The notes beneath the pieces were generated by a model. It searched no databases and had not been told where the DNA came from. It worked only from the letters and a program-made list of their open reading frames with translations. Positions 4,265 to 34,614 of a stretch of 36,519 nt of DNA are shown here, piece after piece. The stretch's first letter is position 1, and each line of letters begins with the position of its first letter. The translations under genes and the position numbers were made by a program. The DNA comes from a virus. The stretch is taken from positions 1-36,519 of IMG/VR virus record IMGVR_UViG_3300049844_000277; one strand, 5' to 3'.

Positions 4265-5005
4265 TCAATCGATATGTATCAACAGCTTTTCTCTGTATTC
4301 CGGATTTAACTCAAAGGGGTATCCGAAGGGATTGCAGACGATTCGGGTATCCCCTAGTTGATAACTAAAGAAATCGTGCGTATGGCCGTGTATCCAGAGT
4401 ACAGGCTTACGCTCTACAATAAATCGGTCCATCTGCGATACAAAAAAAGGATTAGTGGCGGATCCTCGGTATCTAGCCGCTACACTCTTCATCGACGGTA
4501 GGTAGTGCGTGATGACTACGTCACCTTGTTTGAGGTTTTTGTCTAAAAAGCGCTCAAACTTAGCGTTCTCTCGCACAACCCAAGGATGAAAGTCAACGAT
4601 CTCAGTGAAATCGTTCATCTCCGTGGCGGCGTAATCGTAATACGGCTTCCACTGCGGAAACCACATCGTACCGCCAAGAAAACGGCGGCCGTTGATACTG
4701 AGTACTTGATTGTTCAGTACGGAGAGGTTCGAGATACCCGCGCACGCCGTACTGAGTACGCTAAATCCTTCTGCTGGACGGAGCCTCCAAAATTCATGAT
4801 TACCGGGTACGTAAATAACCTTTGGGTACTTCGCCGCAAGTGCGAGGAGTAGTTTGCGTACCTGCGCACTGAACCGTAAGGATAGTATGTCTCCAGCGAG
4901 TACAAGGATATCCACGTCGGAGGGGTCCATCTTTCCGATGAACTCGGTACCGCCGTCAGCATGAAGCTCGAGATGGAGGTCAGATACTATCTGAAGGGTA
5001 GGCAT
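4265..5005 (-). CDS. Calcineurin-like metallophosphoesterase
   Basis: The ordered motif set VSDLHLE, LAGDIL, PGNHEFW and WIHGHTHD is present. Confidence 0.8.
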   Translation of the reverse strand: MPTLQIVSDLHLELHADGGTEFIGKMDPSDVDILVLAGDILSLRFSAQVRKLLLALAAKYPKVIYVPGNHEFWRLRPAEGFSVLSTACAGISNLSVLNNQVLSINGRRFLGGTMWFPQWKPYYDYAATEMNDFTEIVDFHPWVVRENAKFERFLDKNLKQGDVVITHYLPSMKSVAARYRGSATNPFFVSQMDRFIVERKPVLWIHGHTHDFFSYQLGDTRIVCNPFGYPFELNPEYREKLLIHID

Positions 5006-16095: not shown

Positions 16096-16712
16096 TTGCC
16101 GCCTCCAGAGACACTGACAACTTGGTTGCGTGTGTTCGACGCCGTTTCATTGGCGAGAGTAGCCGCTGGAGATATTCCAGTCGAAGAAACAATTCCGCCC
16201 ATCTGTTGCTCGGACGAACTTGGAGAAGAGCTACCTGGAGCTGTGGTAGTAGAAGATTCTGTTGTCGATGCGCTTTGAGACGGAGTAACGGACTTCGCTG
16301 TCTCGGTCGTATTGTTAGACCCGATAGTTGACCGTGCTCGAGGAATTTTCGCCGCCCTCGGAGGAGGAGCGGGAGCGTATACACTGGCCGCTTTAGACGT
16401 CGAGGGGATAGCGGGCGCTGCTGGAGGGGGCGAGGATATTACAGAACCTTGCGCTTGGGTTTGGCCCATACTGGCAACGGTAGGCGTTGCAGGAACTCCC
16501 GTACCTAAAACCGGAGACGTCGGGAGTGATTGATTAGGCGGGGCTGGCTTAGCTGATGCGGAAGTCATTCCCGGAACCGTCGAACCAACCGAAGGTACGG
16601 CGCCAAGACTTCCCGCCGCAGGAACGGCTCCAGACGTATGTAGCGCTGTTGCAGCAAATTTACATGCTGCGTCATTAGAGCCGCACTGATACGCCAACAT
16701 GTTAAGAGTCAC
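16092..16712 (-). CDS. Pro/Ser/Thr/Ala-rich low-complexity protein, 206 aa, with the shared N-terminal motif
   Basis: GTG start with an AGGAGG ribosome-binding site and a 5-nt spacer. N-terminus LAYQCGSNDAACKFAATA. Confidence 0.5.
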   Translation of the reverse strand: MTLNMLAYQCGSNDAACKFAATALHTSGAVPAAGSLGAVPSVGSTVPGMTSASAKPAPPNQSLPTSPVLGTGVPATPTVASMGQTQAQGSVISSPPPAAPAIPSTSKAASVYAPAPPPRAAKIPRARSTIGSNNTTETAKSVTPSQSASTTESSTTTAPGSSSPSSSEQQMGGIVSSTGISPAATLANETASNTRNQVVSVSGGGK

Positions 16713-17229
16713 GGAGCCCTCCTGTAGTATCGGACTGGAACGGCTTCGTAGGAGGGCCGCCCTGTAGCGTGTTGTTGACCCGTGACGGCTGTGTGAAGCT
16801 TGAGGGGTCCGTCAACACAGTACTGTTGTACCTAAAATTCTGCGCGATGTTCTGTGCACTATCTCGGTGATGCGTTGTTGCTACGGGCGAACCTGAATCT
16901 CGTACAGATGAGGCGTCCGCTGGAGCGGCGGATGATGCGGCGCTGAACTTAGCAAAAGCATCAGCCCGCCCGGCCCAATACGCCATCTTCTCAATTTTTT
17001 TTAGCTTATCGTAGTACCGCGGGTCTTCTGTGAGATGGTCCATCGCAATTTCTTTTGCGATTTGAGTATCCGGGGTGTGCTCACGCTCAACCTTTGCTCC
17101 GGCGCGAACCTTCTTCGGCGGAAAGGATTCCTCCGACTTACCGGAAGCAAGCCCGCCCTGAATCTTCTCTTTTTTTGGTGTCATAAGGAGAGCGGTACCT
17201 CGACTGGCTCGATGCGGGTAGGAATACAC
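16702..17229 (-). CDS. Hypothetical protein, 175 aa, with an internal copy of the shared motif (MAYWAGRADAFAKFSAA)
   Basis: GTG start with AGGTG 5 nt upstream. It overlaps the 3' end of the HNH gene by 49 nt. Confidence 0.45.
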   Translation of the reverse strand: MYSYPHRASRGTALLMTPKKEKIQGGLASGKSEESFPPKKVRAGAKVEREHTPDTQIAKEIAMDHLTEDPRYYDKLKKIEKMAYWAGRADAFAKFSAASSAAPADASSVRDSGSPVATTHHRDSAQNIAQNFRYNSTVLTDPSSFTQPSRVNNTLQGGPPTKPFQSDTTGGLRDS

Positions 17230-18029
17230 GTTACACCTAGTTTAGTTCTTCTCGCTTCGAGCCATTTCTCATTTACTATTTTCGCACCTTTAGAAGAGTT
17301 ACAGCTTTTACATATGGGGCGAAGATTACTAGGACAGTTCGAACCTCCGCGGGCTAGCGGTATTACGTGATCTATTGCGCCGTAAGGACGTCCACATATC
17401 CAACAATGTCCGCCCCAAAGAAGAATTATCTTCTTTACGTCGGCAGCGGATAGAGTACCTCCAATACGCGCTTCCCTAGCACGGCGATTAGCTTTAGCCG
17501 CTTTCAATGCTTCAGGGTGTCGCTGGCAATACTGGCGGCCATATTCTTTTACCTTCCGCGGATTCGCCTGTTTCCAAGATTTGACTTTCACCAGAACGCG
17601 CGCCATATTCTTTTTCAGCCATGCGCGGTCAGCTGCTTTCTTTCGTTCAGGATTAGCGTCCCGCCATTCTTTGTTTAACGCTAAAAGACGTCTCCGGTGT
17701 TTCTTGTAATATTTTTTTCGTGAAGCAACGGCCCGTTCTCGGTTCGTTTTGTACCATTCTCTAGACATTACCCTGTATTTATCAGGATCTTTCCAATACA
17801 GAATTTTATCGCGTTCCTTCTTACGGAGAGGATTTTTGAGTTTCCAGCGACGAGCTCTCTTTTTAGCGCGCTCTCGATAGTCGGAATCATTTGCGTATTT
17901 AGATGCGAGTTGCGCTCTTACACATTTTTTACACGAAGGGTGTTTCCCGCTACTTTGTTGGCTGTTGTTATAGAATTCGTCTAGTTCCCGATACTGCTTA
18001 CACTTAGTACATTTTTTGCGTATCATCAC
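17181..18029 (-). CDS. HNH endonuclease with N-terminal CxxC...CxxC ribbon and about five basic W...NPE-type repeats
   Basis: C-terminus GHCWICGRPYGAIDHVIPLARGGSNCPSNLRPICKSCNSSKG is a canonical HNH zinc-finger motif. Confidence 0.8.
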   Translation of the reverse strand: MMIRKKCTKCKQYRELDEFYNNSQQSSGKHPSCKKCVRAQLASKYANDSDYRERAKKRARRWKLKNPLRKKERDKILYWKDPDKYRVMSREWYKTNRERAVASRKKYYKKHRRRLLALNKEWRDANPERKKAADRAWLKKNMARVLVKVKSWKQANPRKVKEYGRQYCQRHPEALKAAKANRRAREARIGGTLSAADVKKIILLWGGHCWICGRPYGAIDHVIPLARGGSNCPSNLRPICKSCNSSKGAKIVNEKWLEARRTKLGVTCIPTRIEPVEVPLSL

Positions 18030-27717: not shown

Positions 27718-29670
27718 TCAAGCCTTCTTGCCGTAGTCGACGATGCGTACCATCAAGTCCGTAGCATTGAGAGCTACACCGACTTGAATGACGCGCTTAC
27801 CGCTACCCGAGGGAGCTGCGGTCGATAGACCGCCGCCCGTCGCCAGGTAGTACGGCGTACCGGCGGTAGCGCCAGTAAGTACGCCAACCGCCAAGCCCGT
27901 CTCCACAACCTCAGTTGGGCTACCAACGGTAGCTTGCGCCGTACGGGCGATACCGATAACACGAGACTTCGGGTCGGTATCCGTATCCGCCTTAGCGACT
28001 CTATCTCCCGTACCGGTGATGTAGAGCGGATCGCCAACGGCTACGGCAGCATCGACGTTGATGGTGTTCTCAATCCGTTGAGCTTCACCAACATTATTGG
28101 CCTGGAGAGCGCCGCCACCCGTGAAGCTGATGGTCGTTCCATCAACCTTCACCTGCATACCGTTGGCGCTGGTTTGTAGACCCGCCGCGGTATCGTACTT
28201 AACTCCGAGCTCGTTAACCGTAAACTTCAGCGTCGGGTTGGTGTCCTCGATATCTACGTAGAGACCCGTAGCATCCGTAAGGAGACCAGATACCGCCGGG
28301 AGCTTAACGCTTAGGCCGTTAGCATCTCGCTGCAGACCGCCAGTGGAGAAAATCTTGGCCTGTACGCCCGTAGAGCCGTTGAACTCGAGGCCGGGGTTAG
28401 CCGCCAGCATCAAGTAAACGCCGTTAGCGTCGGTCGCGATAGCGCGGGTATTGTCCGCAACAACCTCAAAGCCCGTCGCGGTAATGGTAAGGCCCTTACT
28501 CGCGCTGACGATACCCTTCAAGCCAGTGCCGCTAAGCGACAAGCCAGGGTTGGTATCGAGCTTAACGCCAAGGGTCTTCGGCGTACCGGCGTTAAACTGG
28601 AGACCACCAGTCGTAGTCAGCGCCATCCGCAGAATGCCGGTCGTGAGGTAGAGAGCGTAATCTTCGTCTACCGTCAGCTTGCCCTTGGTTCCGCCACCAG
28701 CTCCTGACGTTGCGTCAGGAACAGCGCCTGAACCAGAGAACACGTTCCACGTATTAGCGTCGTCATCCCAAGCTTCGATGGAGTTCTCATCGAGGCAGAA
28801 GTGCATCTCGCCATCGATAAGAGCCGAGGTTTGCCGGCGGAAACCGAAGCGGCCCGCAGCGGGGTCCACCGACGGCATCGTGATGACGGTCGTGCTGGTG
28901 TAGTCCGTGTACGGAACACCGGGCGACCCAGACGCGTACTCGACGACTTTGGCGTCGTTCGCCGTCGTCCACGTACCGTAGATACGGCTCGTAGAATTAC
29001 CTGCGGCAGTAGCCTTCTCGTGAACAACAATGATATTCCCGCCAGCGGGATTGAGGCGGTCACTCGCGTAGTCGACGTGAGCGTCCCATACTGTATTACC
29101 GCCGTCCGCCATCACCCGAGTAACGAAACGCTCCATCGCCGTCAGAGCGCTCGTTTCAATCGAGACGTCAGTAGCCGCAGACTCGCCAGCGATATTCGCT
29201 ACGAAGGTATACGTCCGGGTTAGTGTCCCGTTCGTCAAAACAACCGTATCTCCAACTACCGGCTGATTGGCGAAGAACAGTACCTCGGCTGCATTGATAC
29301 CTTGAACGTCCGACAACTGACCGTCGGACACAAGCGCTTCTTTGATTTGCCCGCCAGTTACGACGAGCGTATCAACATACGCCTTGTTCGTCAGGTCACT
29401 GGCTAGAGTAGGAGCAGTGCTCCCCGTTACTTTAGCAACCCCACCCAAATCAAGGTTCGCAGTTAAAGCGAGACCTGCGAGAGAAGCACCAGATTGCCCG
29501 TAAGCCAACCCGTCGTTGGCTGCCGTCGCCGCCCCGAGACCAGTAATCTTGTTGGTCCCCATGGCGATGTTGCCGCTCATGGTAAGACCACCTAAGTCGA
29601 GGGCATCCGCCGGCTGCTGCTCCTCGAAGTACCCTTCAGTCGATTGAAATAGGAATTTACGTAGAGCCAT
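27718..29670 (-). CDS. Tail fiber protein, 650 aa
   Basis: N-terminal ITGLGAATAANDG...DLTNKAYVD matches the common tail-fiber anchor motif ending K-x-YVD. The C-terminal half has GL-NG-L-VKL type beta repeats. Confidence 0.7.
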   Translation of the reverse strand: MALRKFLFQSTEGYFEEQQPADALDLGGLTMSGNIAMGTNKITGLGAATAANDGLAYGQSGASLAGLALTANLDLGGVAKVTGSTAPTLASDLTNKAYVDTLVVTGGQIKEALVSDGQLSDVQGINAAEVLFFANQPVVGDTVVLTNGTLTRTYTFVANIAGESAATDVSIETSALTAMERFVTRVMADGGNTVWDAHVDYASDRLNPAGGNIIVVHEKATAAGNSTSRIYGTWTTANDAKVVEYASGSPGVPYTDYTSTTVITMPSVDPAAGRFGFRRQTSALIDGEMHFCLDENSIEAWDDDANTWNVFSGSGAVPDATSGAGGGTKGKLTVDEDYALYLTTGILRMALTTTGGLQFNAGTPKTLGVKLDTNPGLSLSGTGLKGIVSASKGLTITATGFEVVADNTRAIATDANGVYLMLAANPGLEFNGSTGVQAKIFSTGGLQRDANGLSVKLPAVSGLLTDATGLYVDIEDTNPTLKFTVNELGVKYDTAAGLQTSANGMQVKVDGTTISFTGGGALQANNVGEAQRIENTINVDAAVAVGDPLYITGTGDRVAKADTDTDPKSRVIGIARTAQATVGSPTEVVETGLAVGVLTGATAGTPYYLATGGGLSTAAPSGSGKRVIQVGVALNATDLMVRIVDYGKKA

Positions 29671-29732
29671 AACTTTTATCCCCCAAAAAGTCGTAAATTA
29701 CCGACGCCACTTTCAACCGCTTACCTGCAAAT

Positions 29733-30203
29733 CTAGGCGGCCGGAGTCGTAGAAGAAACCTCCGACTTCGGCGCTGTAGGCTGAATCTTGTGCAAAATTC
29801 CGGTTTCGTCGTCGAAACTATACTCGCGCAAAAGTATACCCATCTTCTGCTCTACTTCCTGCCGTACACCATTATAGCGGGCTTCCATTTCCTGCATGTG
29901 CATCGCTGTAGCATGTAGACCTGCCTGCATTCCTGCAAGTTTTCCGTCCTTGTCGATACTTCGAATGTGCTCAGCTAACTGCATCTGCTGAAGCATAAAT
30001 TGATTTCGAGCAGCACGAACTTCCGCATCCAGCCGGCAAAGATTCATGCGCGTCATGTCATCAAGCTTAATAACTTGATCGACGATAGACGGCTCCTCTT
30101 TACTCGGTAAGCTGGGCGCCGGTGGAACCTCCGCAACAGGGGCAGTCTCGATTTCAACTTCGGATACTTCATGAATACGCTTAAGCTTTCTTGGACGTGC
30201 CAT
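29733..30203 (-). CDS. Coiled-coil protein, 156 aa, possible tail assembly or adaptor
   Basis: Heptad-like Gln/Met/Ala/Glu-rich sequence. Its stop lies 2 nt from the next start. Confidence 0.45.
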   Translation of the reverse strand: MARPRKLKRIHEVSEVEIETAPVAEVPPAPSLPSKEEPSIVDQVIKLDDMTRMNLCRLDAEVRAARNQFMLQQMQLAEHIRSIDKDGKLAGMQAGLHATAMHMQEMEARYNGVRQEVEQKMGILLREYSFDDETGILHKIQPTAPKSEVSSTTPAA

Positions 30204-30204
30204 T

Positions 30205-30624
30205 TTAGAGCCTTACCTTGGTGAACATTGGACGAATGCTTAGGTCTACTTTATCTGCTGCTGCGGCTACGCCTACAGCTTGTACGACCGCGGTTCCAGA
30301 GATGGAGTCTACCGCAGCTGGTGGGGTTGTCGTCGGTTTTCCGTCTAGACCTACAAAAACCAAACGCCCTACATCTAGCGCTGGAAGCCCTGTAAACCCA
30401 CACAGCCCCTGCTTTTGAATTAAGCACGACGTACTGGTTATTTTTTGTATGACGGTACCTACGGCGGGCATCATCAAGTGATTCGACGGGTCTGCTTTAG
30501 TTACTACGTAACTTTGCCCTACGACCGAACCACTTATACGTACAAAATCTCCCACCGCGTCTGAAGGTTGGCAGATCGCGTGACTAAATGAAGCACTACT
30601 TCGAGAAGGTCCCGTGACAATCAT
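30205..30624 (-). CDS. Hypothetical virion protein, 139 aa
   Basis: Lies between the head and tail genes. Confidence 0.45.
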   Translation of the reverse strand: MIVTGPSRSSASFSHAICQPSDAVGDFVRISGSVVGQSYVVTKADPSNHLMMPAVGTVIQKITSTSCLIQKQGLCGFTGLPALDVGRLVFVGLDGKPTTTPPAAVDSISGTAVVQAVGVAAAADKVDLSIRPMFTKVRL

Positions 30625-30633
30625 CGAGAGCTC

Positions 30634-30879
30634 TCACTCCCCACGAATGGCCCTACTTCGGAGATACTTGAACGCTTCGAAAAACCGAGAATAGTTTGAC
30701 ATCGTATATGCGACTTCTTGTGTTGTTCCTTCCTGCGGAGAAATACCGAATTCAAAATACGCACGACTCTTACTTTTGGTTGACACGGACAGCAAGCTCG
30801 TTCCCTGCATCATGAGGAAGCAGGCCAGACCGATGTTGTCGGTTACGAACGTCTTTGTGTCAGGACCGGGCATAGTCAT
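30634..30879 (-). CDS. Hypothetical protein, 81 aa
   Basis: The ATG lies immediately after the terminator U-run. Confidence 0.45.
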   Translation of the reverse strand: MTMPGPDTKTFVTDNIGLACFLMMQGTSLLSVSTKSKSRAYFEFGISPQEGTTQEVAYTMSNYSRFFEAFKYLRSRAIRGE

Positions 30880-30910
30880 AAAAAAGGACGCCCAGTTACC
30901 TAGGCGCCCC
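30880..30910 (-). terminator. Rho-independent terminator after the nuclease gene: 7-bp stem including one G-U pair, 10-nt loop, U7
   Basis: The minus RNA reads GGGCGCC-uagguaacug-GGCGUCC-UUUUUUU. The plus-strand A7 run is at 30880-30886. Confidence 0.55.
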
Positions 30911-30934
30911 TTAGTGTAGGCATTTCAGCCACGC

Positions 30935-32497
30935 TTAGAGTTGATAATCCCAACGTTTTTTACCGCAGTCCCAAATCCTTAGTAGGCCACGCTGTTGAGC
31001 CCACGCCCATTCGGTCAAGTGTGGCGGACAACCTGAGCGCTTCTTAGCTTGTGATTGTTTCGACACTAGTTTAGCCGGAGGAACTACATATGAGTAGTCT
31101 GGGGGTATTTCGTCGGTAAGTGTAAACCCAAGCTTTTGGTAAACATCCCCAACGAACCAACGATTATCGGACCAAGTACGGATACTCGTGAAACCCTTAT
31201 TTCGGGCGTACTCTACTAGAAGCTTGAATAGTCGCTCAGCGCCACCCATCACGTAAACATCCGACTTAAAACAAAGGCGCTGAAGAACCAACACTTTGTC
31301 GTGGCCTTGGCGATGGTGTGTTCCAGCAGTAATCACACCGATGAGCTCTGTGTCTGTGAACAATCCCAGAGCGTACCCAATTTCACGGGCCTGTGGCTGT
31401 AAGTGGTGTGCTCCGATAAAAAGCCGAGCCTGCTCCACTGGAATCGGCGTAACAGTACACTGACGAGCTTGGAAACGGCGAGATGAGAGATGCAGTATCG
31501 AGCGTAGTACGCTTTCGACCTGTGGGCGTCTTTCACGCCATTCGTTCTCGAAGAGGGTTATGAGGCGGAAACCTTGTTTTTGAGCGAGCTTGAGTTTGTT
31601 GTAATGACCATCTTTTCCATACCGCAATATACCATCCGAATCTACACGTTCCGAGTGCCAGTATAATCCGCAGTATTCAATGGCGAGCTTGTGAGAGTCG
31701 ACTACGATATCGAGGGACTTTCGTCCAATCGGTACTTCTTGTCGGACCGGAGTTCCGAGCCACGATGAAATGAGCTCAGCTAACGTATTTTGGGCGGCTC
31801 CGTAAATATGTGTCTTCGTCGGAACTCCACTTTCACCGTAACGTTCAAGAATGGTCGAAGTACGCTTTTCAACCAAAGCATCCCAGTGTTCTTTAGAGAA
31901 GGATCGCTTGATACAGCCCTGGCAGAGAACTCTCTTAAAAACGAAACGAATCCCGCGATGAAATATTTTCAAACACTCAGGGCACTGAAGTAAAATTGGC
32001 TTAGAAACGCCTCGCGTGAGGTCTTCCGGATAATATCCGTACTTACGAAAAGTTTCCTCACGTAAAACACACGCGGGTAGAGGAGGCGGCTTTCCTAGCT
32101 TATCGGCCCACCATTCTCGCCGTTGCGCCTTAAGTTCCGGTGAAGATGAGATATTCTCAACACCGTGACGTTCGAGCATGGTATCTTTTATCTTTTGCCG
32201 TATCTCTTTGCTCTTGAACGGAGAATCTACCCCATAGCGCTCCAACATAGTGATCCGCTGCTTTTCAACAGCTGCCGCTGGGCGCTTCAGATGGATTACG
32301 CAGGAGTGACAGAGGAGCTTGTCATCAACGCGACGGCGCTGTCGCGTGAGGACAGCCTTACAATTGTTGCACGCGTACACAACGTGCTTCGCTGATTTGG
32401 GGTTCAGCTCTTGTGGGCGGTACCCAAATCGAGCGTAGGTCTCTTCCTCAAGGACGGGCATTGCGGCCCTATACGCCAGATCAAAAGGATTGGACAC
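30935..32497 (-). CDS. Free-standing multidomain nuclease, homing-endonuclease-like: Zn-ribbon, tandem RYGV-type repeats, PD-(D/E)XK-like core, GNAT-like C-terminal region
   Basis: CNNC...CHSC ribbon. Repeats ERYGVDSPFKSKEIRQKIKDTMLERHGVEN and ILERYGESGVP. LDIVVDSHKLAIEYCGLYWH...FENEW resembles the DUF559/Vsr-type core. The C-terminus has VMGGAERLFKLLVEYARNKGF...VYQKLGF. GTG start with no ribosome-binding site, placed just after the capsid terminator. Confidence 0.6.
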   Translation of the reverse strand: MSNPFDLAYRAAMPVLEEETYARFGYRPQELNPKSAKHVVYACNNCKAVLTRQRRRVDDKLLCHSCVIHLKRPAAAVEKQRITMLERYGVDSPFKSKEIRQKIKDTMLERHGVENISSSPELKAQRREWWADKLGKPPPLPACVLREETFRKYGYYPEDLTRGVSKPILLQCPECLKIFHRGIRFVFKRVLCQGCIKRSFSKEHWDALVEKRTSTILERYGESGVPTKTHIYGAAQNTLAELISSWLGTPVRQEVPIGRKSLDIVVDSHKLAIEYCGLYWHSERVDSDGILRYGKDGHYNKLKLAQKQGFRLITLFENEWRERRPQVESVLRSILHLSSRRFQARQCTVTPIPVEQARLFIGAHHLQPQAREIGYALGLFTDTELIGVITAGTHHRQGHDKVLVLQRLCFKSDVYVMGGAERLFKLLVEYARNKGFTSIRTWSDNRWFVGDVYQKLGFTLTDEIPPDYSYVVPPAKLVSKQSQAKKRSGCPPHLTEWAWAQQRGLLRIWDCGKKRWDYQL

Positions 32498-32523
32498 AAA
32501 AAAGGCACCCCGGAGGGTGCCTA
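32497..32523 (-). terminator. Strong rho-independent terminator after the capsid gene: perfect 8-bp stem AGGCACCC/GGGTGCCT, 4-nt loop, U-run
   Basis: The minus RNA reads AGGCACCC-uccg-GGGUGCCU-UUUUUG. The stem lies at plus 32503-32522. Confidence 0.8.
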
Positions 32524-32546
32524 ATTTGATCTCTATCTATGGTCGC

Positions 32547-33455
32547 TTACGGGAACGTAATCGACTGAACCGACAGGCGGTTACCGATACCGATACCCGG
32601 GGCCGCGTACGTCCAGAAGGTGATAGTGTCCGCTTCCTGCTTGATGTACAGCGTCGCATCCTGCAGGAGGAAGAAGTTACCCAGATAGTTCTCCGGCGCG
32701 TAGATGTACGCCTTCTTCGGGTCGTGCACGTGGGACTTGATGGTGGTGATAACCGGGAAGCCCCACAGCTTCTCCTCGTTCTCAACACCTTCGTCGTAGT
32801 GCCGTGACGCGACATCATTACCGACGCTGGTAGCCACCAGGTCCAGAGCCTCGTAGTACAGGCTCTTGGTCATCGTCATCTTCCCGATGGGACGACGACG
32901 ATTCACCATCTTCTGGAAGCCCGCCTTAAACGCCGTGGAGTTAAAGCCCGTCGCGCCGATGTTCTGCTCAGCCAGGTTCAGGGCGATAAGCGCATCGACC
33001 GTCTCCTGCCACTTCTTGTCTTCCTGGTCGGCCATGTCCTTGACCGAGTTGTCGCTCAACATTTTCCTAATGTCATTTTGGTAAGTCATCAACTGGAATT
33101 TTGACTTAGTAAAGTGCTGGCTCTCCGTCTTTCCGAAGAAGATTGAGTAGCGTGGACCCTTGAACCAGGTACGCGGACCGGCGCCCTGGAACTGGACGAA
33201 GGTAGCCACCGACTTCGGCTCCTTCTCCACAATCTTCTTCGGCTCATCCGTGTTCTCGTCGCGGTCAATCTCGTCGTCCTGTAACAGGACCGGCGTGATG
33301 ATTTCTCGAGCGTACGACTCCTGACGGACAAACTCGCGGATAAACGCACTACCCTCAGCCGCAGCTTCCTTGATGCGCCCGTCCTCGATCTTCTTTACGA
33401 AGTTCGAATTGACGAACTGCGCTGAGACTTGCTGGGTTTCAGTCTTATAAGCCAT
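32547..33455 (-). CDS. Putative major capsid protein, 302 aa
   Basis: It follows the scaffold and decoration genes, has GGAGG 10 nt upstream of the ATG, and is followed by the strongest terminator in the window. Confidence 0.5.
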   Translation of the reverse strand: MAYKTETQQVSAQFVNSNFVKKIEDGRIKEAAAEGSAFIREFVRQESYAREIITPVLLQDDEIDRDENTDEPKKIVEKEPKSVATFVQFQGAGPRTWFKGPRYSIFFGKTESQHFTKSKFQLMTYQNDIRKMLSDNSVKDMADQEDKKWQETVDALIALNLAEQNIGATGFNSTAFKAGFQKMVNRRRPIGKMTMTKSLYYEALDLVATSVGNDVASRHYDEGVENEEKLWGFPVITTIKSHVHDPKKAYIYAPENYLGNFFLLQDATLYIKQEADTITFWTYAAPGIGIGNRLSVQSITFP

Positions 33456-33715
33456 GGTTGAAAAGCCTCCGTTAAATCTGCCCAGAGTCTGAGCGTTAAG
33501 TTAATCTAGGCACTTTGGGTTATAGGGACAACTTTTGATTTGCACAGATACTGCTTCGCGACCTCGAGACGGCCCGTACTATCTTCCGCACGGGCCAATA
33601 ACAAATTGCACTCGTTGCACAGCAGGCCGCGAACTTTGTTGGTCGCGTGGTTATGCGCAACACCAAGTTTTAAAGTTACGCACTGACCATTCTGTGCTTC
33701 AAAAGCGCCAGGTAT
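33456..33715 (-). promoter_or_regulatory. 260-nt structured leader upstream of the capsid gene, with GC-rich hairpins such as GGCCCGT-12nt-ACGGGCC
   Basis: No credible ORF. Several perfect 5-7 bp GC stems lack U-tracts. A CCTATAACC motif lies about 70 nt upstream of the ATG on the minus strand. Confidence 0.35.
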
Positions 33716-34207
33716 TTAGAGGCCGCCGCCCTGCGGCACGATTACCTGGAGAACGCCGTTAACTGAGTCAAGGCCAGCAGGACCAACCACGCCGATAATC
33801 TGGTCCGTCGCCCCAGCGAGCTTAACCTTGCCCGCGTTGAATGATACGAGCTTGCCGGGCGTATATGACCCCGTGTCGTACTGGTCCGTTAGCATCGTAA
33901 AACCACCGTGAAGAACGGTGAGCTTCTGCACGAACGAACCCGAGAAGTCCTTGTTACCGTCGATGGTAACAAACGCCATCTTCGCGTTCAGACGATTGGC
34001 GACCACATCTCCCGTGGTGGCGAGCTCCGCCTCCCCCGTGGTGACGTTCATCGACACAATCGCACCAGGAGGAATAACGCCCGCGACGGGAGTACCCTCA
34101 GAATTCAGGGTCATGCCGCCAGGAACCGTGAGAACCTGCGCCAGAGCAGCCAGCGCAACCGGGTTATCAACGGAAACAATGTCAAACTTCGAGCTGAGCA
34201 TACTCAT
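33716..34207 (-). CDS. Head decoration protein-like (gpD/DUF2190-like), 163 aa
   Basis: Lies directly upstream of the capsid gene. C-terminal GATDQIIGVVGPAGL resembles the G-x-TD-x-AVGIL motif of lambda gpD-type proteins. AGGGAG ribosome-binding site. Confidence 0.4.
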   Translation of the reverse strand: MSMLSSKFDIVSVDNPVALAALAQVLTVPGGMTLNSEGTPVAGVIPPGAIVSMNVTTGEAELATTGDVVANRLNAKMAFVTIDGNKDFSGSFVQKLTVLHGGFTMLTDQYDTGSYTPGKLVSFNAGKVKLAGATDQIIGVVGPAGLDSVNGVLQVIVPQGGGL

Positions 34208-34242
34208 TGTATATCTCCCTACTTTCTATCCGCCTGGTGGCG

Positions 34243-34614
34243 TTAAGAGTTGATGAAGTTGCCGAAACGATCCCAGGCAGCGGCGGCTGCCTCTTTCTTG
34301 TTCTCCGGTTTACTTTGCGCCGACTTCTCGCTTGACCGGCCGAGGCTTTCTACGCCGGTACTTCCCGCCGTTTTATCCAACAACTGCTTTACGGTGGAGA
34401 GCACATCTTCCCCCGAGGAGGAAAGCTTGTCGAAGACTTCTCGCGGAATCTCTTCCCCGGTCGCTTCCGTATACTTATCGGCAACGCTCTTCAGGGCGAC
34501 GTCTCGAGCCATCTTTACGGCGGCGGTCTTTTCAGCTTCGTGGCTATCGATGACTTTTGCAGCCTCATCTAAAACGTCAGCCACTTTTAACAGGAAGTTC
34601 GAATCAGCGGACAT
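34243..34614 (-). CDS. Acidic helical head-module protein, 123 aa, scaffold-like
   Basis: Glu/Lys/Ala-rich helical sequence, similar in style to the 216-aa scaffold. Confidence 0.45.
   Translation of the reverse strand: MSADSNFLLKVADVLDEAAKVIDSHEAEKTAAVKMARDVALKSVADKYTEATGEEIPREVFDKLSSSGEDVLSTVKQLLDKTAGSTGVESLGRSSEKSAQSKPENKKEAAAAAWDRFGNFINS

Follow-up and report, generated by a model that had tools for sequence, protein, structure and literature searches.

The window analysed here is a 36,519-nt stretch of viral DNA (IMG/VR record IMGVR_UViG_3300049844_000277, positions 1 to 36,519), in which a 520-aa open reading frame (ORF) lies directly downstream of a major capsid protein gene. We consider it highly probable that this ORF is a free-standing Hef-like homing endonuclease gene, encoding a Vsr-like nuclease of the EDxHD type, that was inserted into the spacer downstream of the capsid gene. 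Family membership, a four-part domain architecture, empty sites in relatives, a sister copy at the same locus and two bracketing terminators directly support this assignment. All genes of the neighbourhood lie on the minus strand, and the region initially singled out, 30880-32546, comprises the ORF together with both terminators. In the order of transcription, the locus contains:

32547..33455, minus strand: major capsid protein gene (302 aa), the conserved upstream neighbour
32498..32522, minus strand: terminator T1, AGGCACCC-TCCG-GGGTGCCT followed by TTTTT and then GTG
30935..32497, minus strand: Hef-like homing endonuclease ORF (520 aa, GTG start, no Shine-Dalgarno (SD) sequence)
30880..30912 (about), minus strand: terminator T2, a 13-bp stem and U-run directly before the ATG of g81
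30634..30879, minus strand: g81, a DUF5659 protein gene (Pfam DUF5659, E-value 1.3e-5), the conserved downstream neighbour

The ORF protein matches phrog_3339 ("homing endonuclease") with an E-value of 1.1e-73, residues 53-518 aligning with profile positions 117-533 of 536. A tblastn search with the protein gave matches in 412 phage records, 85 of which cover at least 80% of its length. These matches include annotated Hef-like proteins of cultured phages (E-values 1e-21 to 1e-27, 85-98% of the protein), i.e., of Acinetobacter phage Acj9, Dickeya phage LIMEstone1 (F-LimVIII) and Campylobacter phage PC14, the last with 11 matching places in one genome, and also proteins of Klebsiella phage RaK2 that are annotated simply as homing endonuclease. 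The C-terminal motifs common to the ORF and the annotated Hef-like proteins align. In PMC3296691, the free-standing homing endonucleases of phages are divided into GIY-YIG, HNH and, as a third group, Hef-like enzymes. The Hef-like gene of Acj9 (Acj9p227) is located between nrdA and nrdB, and nrdB is reported to be the target of phage U5 Hef (PMC2988022). Among 5.8 billion proteins, the nearest homologue of the ORF (P0001) is 47% identical, and the ORF is a divergent new member of the known Hef-like family. Defence-system models of PADLOC gave no family at an E-value of 0.01 or better. An Rfam scan of positions 30000-34000 returned no intron family, its sole match being a chance snoRNA hit (E-value 0.5), and the ORF sits between complete genes rather than within an intron-interrupted one. 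No second copy (paralogue) of the gene was found elsewhere in the window. The first-pass annotation, made from the sequence without database searches, had read the gene as free-standing, coding for a multidomain nuclease and resembling homing endonuclease genes, and these matches bear it out.

An AlphaFold2 model of the full protein, built on 117 homologues (mean predicted local distance difference test (pLDDT) score 86.9), divides it into four parts, listed from the N-terminus:

32078..32461, minus strand: N-terminal module 1 (residues 13-140), a Zn ribbon and helical ERYGV/ERHGV repeats (DUF7487)
31802..32077, minus strand: N-terminal module 2 (residues 141-232), a second Zn ribbon and one ERYG repeat
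31478..31801, minus strand: Vsr-like (EDxHD-type) PD-(D/E)XK nuclease domain (residues 233-340)
30938..31477, minus strand: Mom-like GNAT domain (residues 341-520), including a helix-pair insertion and the RIWDCG strand

The Zn ribbon of module 1 has the form CxxC...CxxC with nearly invariant cysteines (C43, C46, C63, C66), and that of module 2 is formed by C172, C175, C192 and C195. Pfam matches DUF7487 above its cut-off (E-value 1.6e-11) and hints at a treble-clef Zn finger in module 1. The two modules are 32% identical to each other by BLASTP (E-value 3e-15), which indicates an internal duplication, and both are presumed to bind DNA. The domains guessed from the bare sequence thus reappear under known names: there are two Zn ribbons instead of the one proposed, DUF7487 accounts for the ERYGV repeats, the PD-(D/E)XK-like block belongs to a Vsr-like nuclease and the C-terminus has a GNAT fold.

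The nuclease assignment is consistent across sequence and structure. A separate model of this domain (pLDDT 87) matched 1vsr, 1cw0, 3r3p and 3hrl in Foldseek searches with a probability of 1.0 and template modelling (TM) scores of 0.5-0.68, and the family profile matches the catalytic domain of I-Bth0305I (3r3p) with an E-value of 0.0019. Phage Hef-type enzymes were placed in the Vsr-like EDxHD family by Taylor et al. 2011 (PMC3239194). Residues D263, E274, G277, H281, H298, K301 and E319 of the domain are family-invariant. In the EDxHD register, D263, E274 and H281 correspond to D196, E206 and H213 of I-Bth0305I, and all three are invariant in the family of the ORF; the position of I-Bth0305I D222 aligns with the invariant H298, and the first Glu of EDxHD is not confidently placed. 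A Pfam scan of the ORF protein gave no match to a NUMOD-type N-terminal region.

The C-terminal domain was searched in the same way. In Foldseek, chains A and B of phage Mu Mom (8bv8) ranked first and second among 1,014 PDB matches (E-value 1e-7), ahead of ordinary acetyltransferases, so that the resemblance to a GNAT fold suspected from sequence motifs is supported by structure prediction, with Mu Mom as the best match. The Pfam family Mom (PF25680) was matched with an E-value of 4.5e-5 and 23.6 bits, just below the gathering cut-off of 27.1, and a PF25680 match is precomputed for many close homologues of the ORF. The PHROG "Mom-like DNA modification protein" was matched as well (E-value 7.8e-7), and in BFVD stand-alone phage Mom proteins match the model of the ORF lower in the list. 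Alignment of the family with the single Mu Mom sequence by hhalign gave the expected register at low probability; the relationship to Mom therefore rests on the Pfam, PHROG and fold evidence. This register pairs R407, D444, R446 and Y453 with R111, D149, R151 and Y159 of Mu Mom, and H365 was matched by eye to Mom H58.

Mom transfers glycine from Gly-tRNA to the N6 of adenine in double-stranded DNA, and AlphaFold3 modelling suggests that the adenine is flipped out (PMC13219725). R111, S124 and R151 of Mom are essential and D149, H58, Y59 and Y159 important, S124A is catalytically dead, and an insertion resembling a helix-turn-helix (HTH) is required (PMC13219725; earlier mutagenesis in PMC7261163). 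Of this active-site set (H58, Y59, R111, S124, D149, R151, Y159), five of seven equivalents are kept in the ORF. H365, R407, G418, D444, R446 and Y453 are invariant in all 117 relatives, and G419 in 116. At the position of Mom S124, Ser is found in 91 of the 117 relatives and E421 in the ORF, while the position of Y59 is never Tyr in the relatives and is L366 here. Among annotated Hef-like proteins from cultured phages, the residue corresponding to D149 is Asn in Acj9 Hef, and the one corresponding to R151 is Leu in PC14. The model places the helix pair (residues ~485-502, within the insertion of residues ~473-503) where Mom has its HTH-like DNA-binding insertion. Within the protein, conservation is highest in the Mom-like domain, which has 41 near-invariant columns versus 18 in the nuclease.

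The first-pass annotation had regarded a nuclease joined to an acetyltransferase-like domain as a non-standard homing-endonuclease architecture. This view does not hold, as the combination proves to be the standard build of Hef-like proteins: phrog_3339 is matched over the full length, and the 412 phage records are joined by more than 20 phage proteins in BFVD that match the full-length model (E-values 1e-23 to 1e-33) and are named endonuclease-like or homing endonuclease. A search with the C-terminal domain returned about 10,440 clusters at 50% identity, 355 of them below an E-value of 1e-30. Most of these clusters represent proteins of 430-680 aa with the Mom-like domain at the C-terminus. 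A minority, among them P0141, P0165 and P0247, carries it N-terminally, ahead of a nuclease of the TnsA-like or Tox-REase-7 kind; the Mom-like domains of these three are 45-49% identical to that of the ORF. The Mom-like domain therefore behaves as a module that travels with nucleases and has been paired independently with different restriction-fold nucleases. No link of Hef-like enzymes to Mom or GNAT was found in the searchable literature.

The conserved residues invite the proposal that the Mom-like domain is an active transferase, i.e., that a nuclease is fused to a DNA-modifying enzyme that marks adenines with the help of an aminoacyl-tRNA or acyl-CoA donor. Such an enzyme could protect its own genome or prepare the target, and the gene would then be a selfish restriction-modification element on a single chain. 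The invariant residues align with Mom sites whose mutation abolishes or strongly reduces activity, the helix-pair insertion takes the place of an insertion that Mom needs, no other part of the protein is as conserved, and the domain has recurrently been paired with nucleases of different families. Yet the position of S124, whose exchange to Ala kills Mom, is variable and Glu here, that of Y59 is never Tyr, either the D149 or the R151 equivalent is missing from annotated Hef-like proteins of cultured phages, and the Pfam Mom score stays under its threshold. On balance we regard an active transferase as unlikely. We favour that the Mom-like domain is mainly a reader that would bind double-stranded DNA and flip a base, because the S124 and Y59 positions are not kept and Acj9 and PC14 have each lost one of the D149 and R151 equivalents, and because the fusion of close relatives of the domain, in reverse order, to an unrelated nuclease makes it look like a shuffled DNA-recognition module.

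The same reservation applies to the wider proposal that Hef-like homing endonucleases in general are two-enzyme proteins, whose Mom-like domain would flip a base and modify it by aminoacyl or acyl transfer; here, too, we judge the chances to be poor. If it were true, the modification could shield the genome that carries the gene against the nuclease it encodes, or else license the cut, single-chain selfish homing elements resembling restriction-modification systems would exist across thousands of phage lineages, and the recurrent fusion to unrelated nucleases (Vsr-like, TnsA-like) would reflect a functional coupling.

Insertion of the gene is apparent from comparison with related loci. The 302-aa protein encoded upstream shares 36% identity (E-value 6e-56) with the protein annotated as major capsid protein in Salmonella phage Arash, in agreement with its earlier reading as a capsid protein. 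This identification rests on the Arash match; nine flanking proteins scanned with PHROG and Pfam gave next to no matches. A 650-aa fibre-like protein (27718..29670) is the only hint that the downstream genes are tail genes. Homologues of the capsid protein are encoded on ~110 IMG/VR and Joint Genome Institute (JGI) contigs, several of which are 180-194 kb long, and the host of the gene is an uncultured phage of about 180-190 kb. On ~25 contigs the capsid protein is 94-97% identical in amino acids, with only about 85% identity in the capsid DNA for the closest relatives, and the gene is absent from every one of these close relatives that has enough downstream sequence. Most of them have the order capsid gene, terminator, 80-aa ORF and g81 homologue. 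Two (L119, L122) present clean empty sites, in which capsid gene, terminator and g81 follow each other directly with a spacer of ~60-75 nt, as compared to 1,667 nt in the window. The first-pass annotation had taken the gene for an insertion and had suggested a search for uninterrupted relatives, and such relatives were thereby found.

Among the ~110 capsid loci, a Hef-like gene stands next to the capsid gene in one other only (L111), and a partial Hef-like copy lies one gene further down in another (L190). The gene at L111 encodes P0001, the nearest homologue of the ORF, and it is found at exactly the corresponding position, directly behind the terminator of a capsid gene that is 73% identical and belongs to a more distant relative. 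This position points to a gene lineage specialised for the capsid locus, and the capsid region is a candidate for the homing target. The two terminators differ in their affinities. T2 can be aligned with the terminator behind the capsid gene in L119 and L122 (L119 4930..4965), whereas the T1 stem (GGCACC/GGTGCC) is identical to the capsid terminator stem of another relative (L028, 6935..6965). The gene thus lies between two lineage versions of the capsid terminator and looks like the product of recombination between lineages.

Alternatively, the gene could be ancestral at this locus and have been lost repeatedly in the relatives. A sister that is 47% identical at the same position behind a capsid gene of only 73% identity would agree with such a history, as would the variation among lineages in the region downstream of the capsid gene. 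However, every close relative with enough downstream sequence lacks the gene, many independent losses would be needed, and the resemblance of T1 and T2 to terminators of different relatives looks like a trace of recombination. We therefore consider an ancestral gene very improbable and retain insertion as the origin of the present arrangement. Similarity to the closest relatives falls from 94-97% amino acid identity in the capsid protein to 53-65% in g81 and is undetectable for the next three genes. This drop fits the report that nuclease genes mark boundaries of genetic exchange (PMC10448857).

A megablast search with positions 29500-34500 gave no match among GenBank phages, which leaves the phage without a close relative in culture. 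Exact-match probes for near-identical genomes, taken from the capsid 3' end and the g81 5' end, found none in IMG/VR or metagenome contigs. Several further features of the locus were recorded. An 11-nt direct repeat, CCTTTTTT(A/G)TG, flanks the element on the minus strand (30877..30887 and 32495..32505, spacing 1,618 nt) and is composed of a stem end, the U-run and the start codon; it could mark recombination junctions or merely reflect two terminators that each precede a start codon. The g81 homologue of L119 and L122 is preceded by a short spacer of ~12 nt with a GGGAAAG or GAGGAAAA motif, unlike g81 in the window. Two genes downstream of the endonuclease gene, a 139-aa gene (30205..30624, minus strand) begins with MIVTGPSRS; the 80-aa ORF of the relatives (L002 6981..7223) begins likewise and then diverges completely from the 139-aa protein. 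The C-termini of the 139-aa protein and of the 650-aa fibre-like protein have phrog_12121 in common. The region downstream of the capsid gene appears to have been reshuffled between lineages.

The T1 hairpin starts 24 nt past the end of the capsid gene and has an 8-bp stem with six G-C pairs; the RNA folds at -24.4 kcal/mol (z = -4.0), and none of 200 shuffled sequences folds equally well. In the RNA fold, the GUG start codon of the ORF is itself paired, within an extended T1 stem, with an A-rich stretch of the 5' side. T2 follows 24 nt beyond the TAA stop of the ORF and folds at -29 kcal/mol (z = -2.8). A purine-rich SD sequence was looked for in the 20 nt upstream of the GTG and none was found; many neighbouring genes have GGAG or AGGAG at the SD position. 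All elements of the expression signature noted in the first reading, i.e., the 520-aa frame with a GTG start, the missing SD sequence and terminators on both sides, are present, with the minor correction that the GTG abuts the U-run directly instead of following it by 6 nt. The GTG start is backed by an N-terminal motif, MSNPFDL here, with counterparts in P0002 (MRTPYDL) and P0004 (MKRPYHL). In most homologues the start corresponds to Met13, which is also a possible start in the ORF; Met13 was considered as the true start and was not adopted, given the recurring MxxP[FY][DH]L N-terminus.

These observations can be combined into a model of how the element might operate. Because the GUG is a weak start, has no SD sequence and is partly buried in the extended T1 stem, we propose that the protein is made at a low level, and only when transcription continues past the capsid terminator. 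In a mixed infection, it would bind genomes without the gene at a long DNA target, which probably lies within or beside the 3' end of the capsid gene, by means of the duplicated Zn-ribbon and helical-repeat modules and the Mom-like domain. The Vsr-like domain would then cleave, using D263, E274 and H281, and recombinational repair from a gene-carrying genome would copy the gene and flanking markers into the cut genome.

Several points weigh against this assignment and model. At ~85% identity of the capsid DNA in the closest relatives, neither the exact insertion boundaries nor a co-conversion tract can be defined, and for the same reason the boundaries are known only to within two short spacers. 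A cluster of private substitutions in the last part of the capsid gene, which could indicate an immune target site or a co-conversion tract, was looked for and not found. The 41 near-invariant columns of the Mom-like domain exceed the expectation for simple DNA binding and leave room for an enzymatic or ligand-binding function. The conserved neighbour g81 likewise has no SD sequence and starts right after a terminator U-run; while the absence of the SD sequence from the ORF stands, its earlier interpretation as the mark of a parasitic gene is weakened, because this feature is not specific to the endonuclease gene. Finally, of the 69 family columns with a conservation of at least 90%, five differ in the ORF (G176L, S285V, Y297G, D318N, R477L), which ranks as the seventh most deviant of 117 members, so that it may be weakened.

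Such departures would be expected if the gene were a homing endonuclease gene that is no longer mobile, intact in length and decaying, or kept only because it is silenced between two terminators. The weak GTG, the missing SD sequence and the pairing of the start codon in the terminator stem could be read in the same way, as could the fact that no copy more than 47% identical was found among the 5.8 billion proteins. On the other side, the frame of 520 codons is open, the structure is predicted with high confidence and all 20 family-invariant columns are kept, although the last holds by construction of the alignment. Decay had also been read from D318N, which falls in the FENEW motif; this reading is weakened by Acj9 Hef, which has the same FENEW. 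D318N and R477L each occur in two of the 117 members, and these are the same two, the ORF and the unrelated P0094. The codon of residue 318 (~31544..31546) lies in the nuclease domain and that of residue 477 (~31067..31069) in the Mom-like insertion. Their joint occurrence suggests that residues 318 and 477 may form an inter-domain contact or salt bridge that was lost in the ORF and in P0094, and a compensated pair rather than damage. Loss of mobility seems to us a doubtful explanation, and we maintain that the ORF is a Hef-like homing endonuclease gene inserted behind the capsid gene.

Two other genes of the window deserve mention. The minus-strand ORF at 17181..18029 (282 aa, GTG start) has the lowest GC content of the window's genes (0.458), overlaps the ORF at 16702..17229 and matches PHROG families of endonuclease VII and HNH endonucleases (best E-value 2.5e-23); within the minus-strand block, it probably represents another free-standing homing endonuclease gene, this one of the HNH type. 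A 246-aa metallophosphoesterase (4265..5005, minus strand; phrog_1649, E-value 1.6e-48) is among the very few window proteins with a family match; beyond these, PHROGs allow hardly any annotation of the phage.

For the window itself, the result is mostly one of annotation: a Hef-like gene stands behind the major capsid gene, where similarity to the relatives breaks down. The more general point concerns the family, which ends in a homologue of Mom and whose Mom-type active-site residues are invariant in a large subgroup; no discussion of this conservation in the Hef-like family was found in the searchable literature. The chemistry of Mom, a tRNA-dependent modification of a flipped-out adenine, was solved only recently. 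The conserved Mom-like pocket thus offers a testable idea of how Hef-like enzymes may recognise DNA and possibly conceals a modification activity.

The closest known counterparts of the ORF are the Hef and Hef-like enzymes of phages (U5 Hef; Acj9p227; F-LimIII, VII, VIII and X of LIMEstone1; CP220 and PC14; RaK2; PA5oct). Homology to them extends over the full length (residues 53-519), with the same order of DUF7487 repeats, Vsr-like nuclease and a C-terminal domain ending in RIWDCG, and their genes are likewise free-standing between conserved essential genes and patchily distributed, often with several copies per genome. Compared with the members from cultured phages, the ORF is only 24-29% identical, has a duplicated Zn-ribbon module, resides at a different locus, downstream of a capsid gene, and falls into a metagenomic subgroup with invariant D444 and R446, of which Acj9 or PC14 have lost one. 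The seg and mob genes of phage T4 resemble it in their intergenic location beside essential genes, their tightly restricted expression and their role in marker exclusion and gene conversion (PMC2988022 and established knowledge), but encode other nuclease folds (GIY-YIG, HNH) and have no sequence relationship to it.

For the single parts of the protein, other systems are nearer. I-Bth0305I has the same nuclease fold and the same bipartite layout of a DNA-binding region and a nuclease. It is, however, intron-encoded, carries NUMOD-type N-terminal motifs and ends with the nuclease, whereas the ORF is free-standing, uses Zn ribbons and DUF7487 and adds a Mom-like domain of 180 aa. Vsr of Escherichia coli (1vsr, 1cw0) has the fold and the catalytic Asp and His of the ORF nuclease in common, but consists of one domain, nicks DNA in repair, contains a Zn site and intercalating Trp residues and has no homing function. 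Mu Mom (8bv8) is the best structural match of residues 341-520, with conserved equivalents of H58, R111, D149, R151 and Y159. Mom is a stand-alone dimeric enzyme of ~230 aa, while the domain of the ORF is fused to a nuclease, has Leu and Glu at the equivalents of Y59 and S124 and scores under the Pfam threshold.

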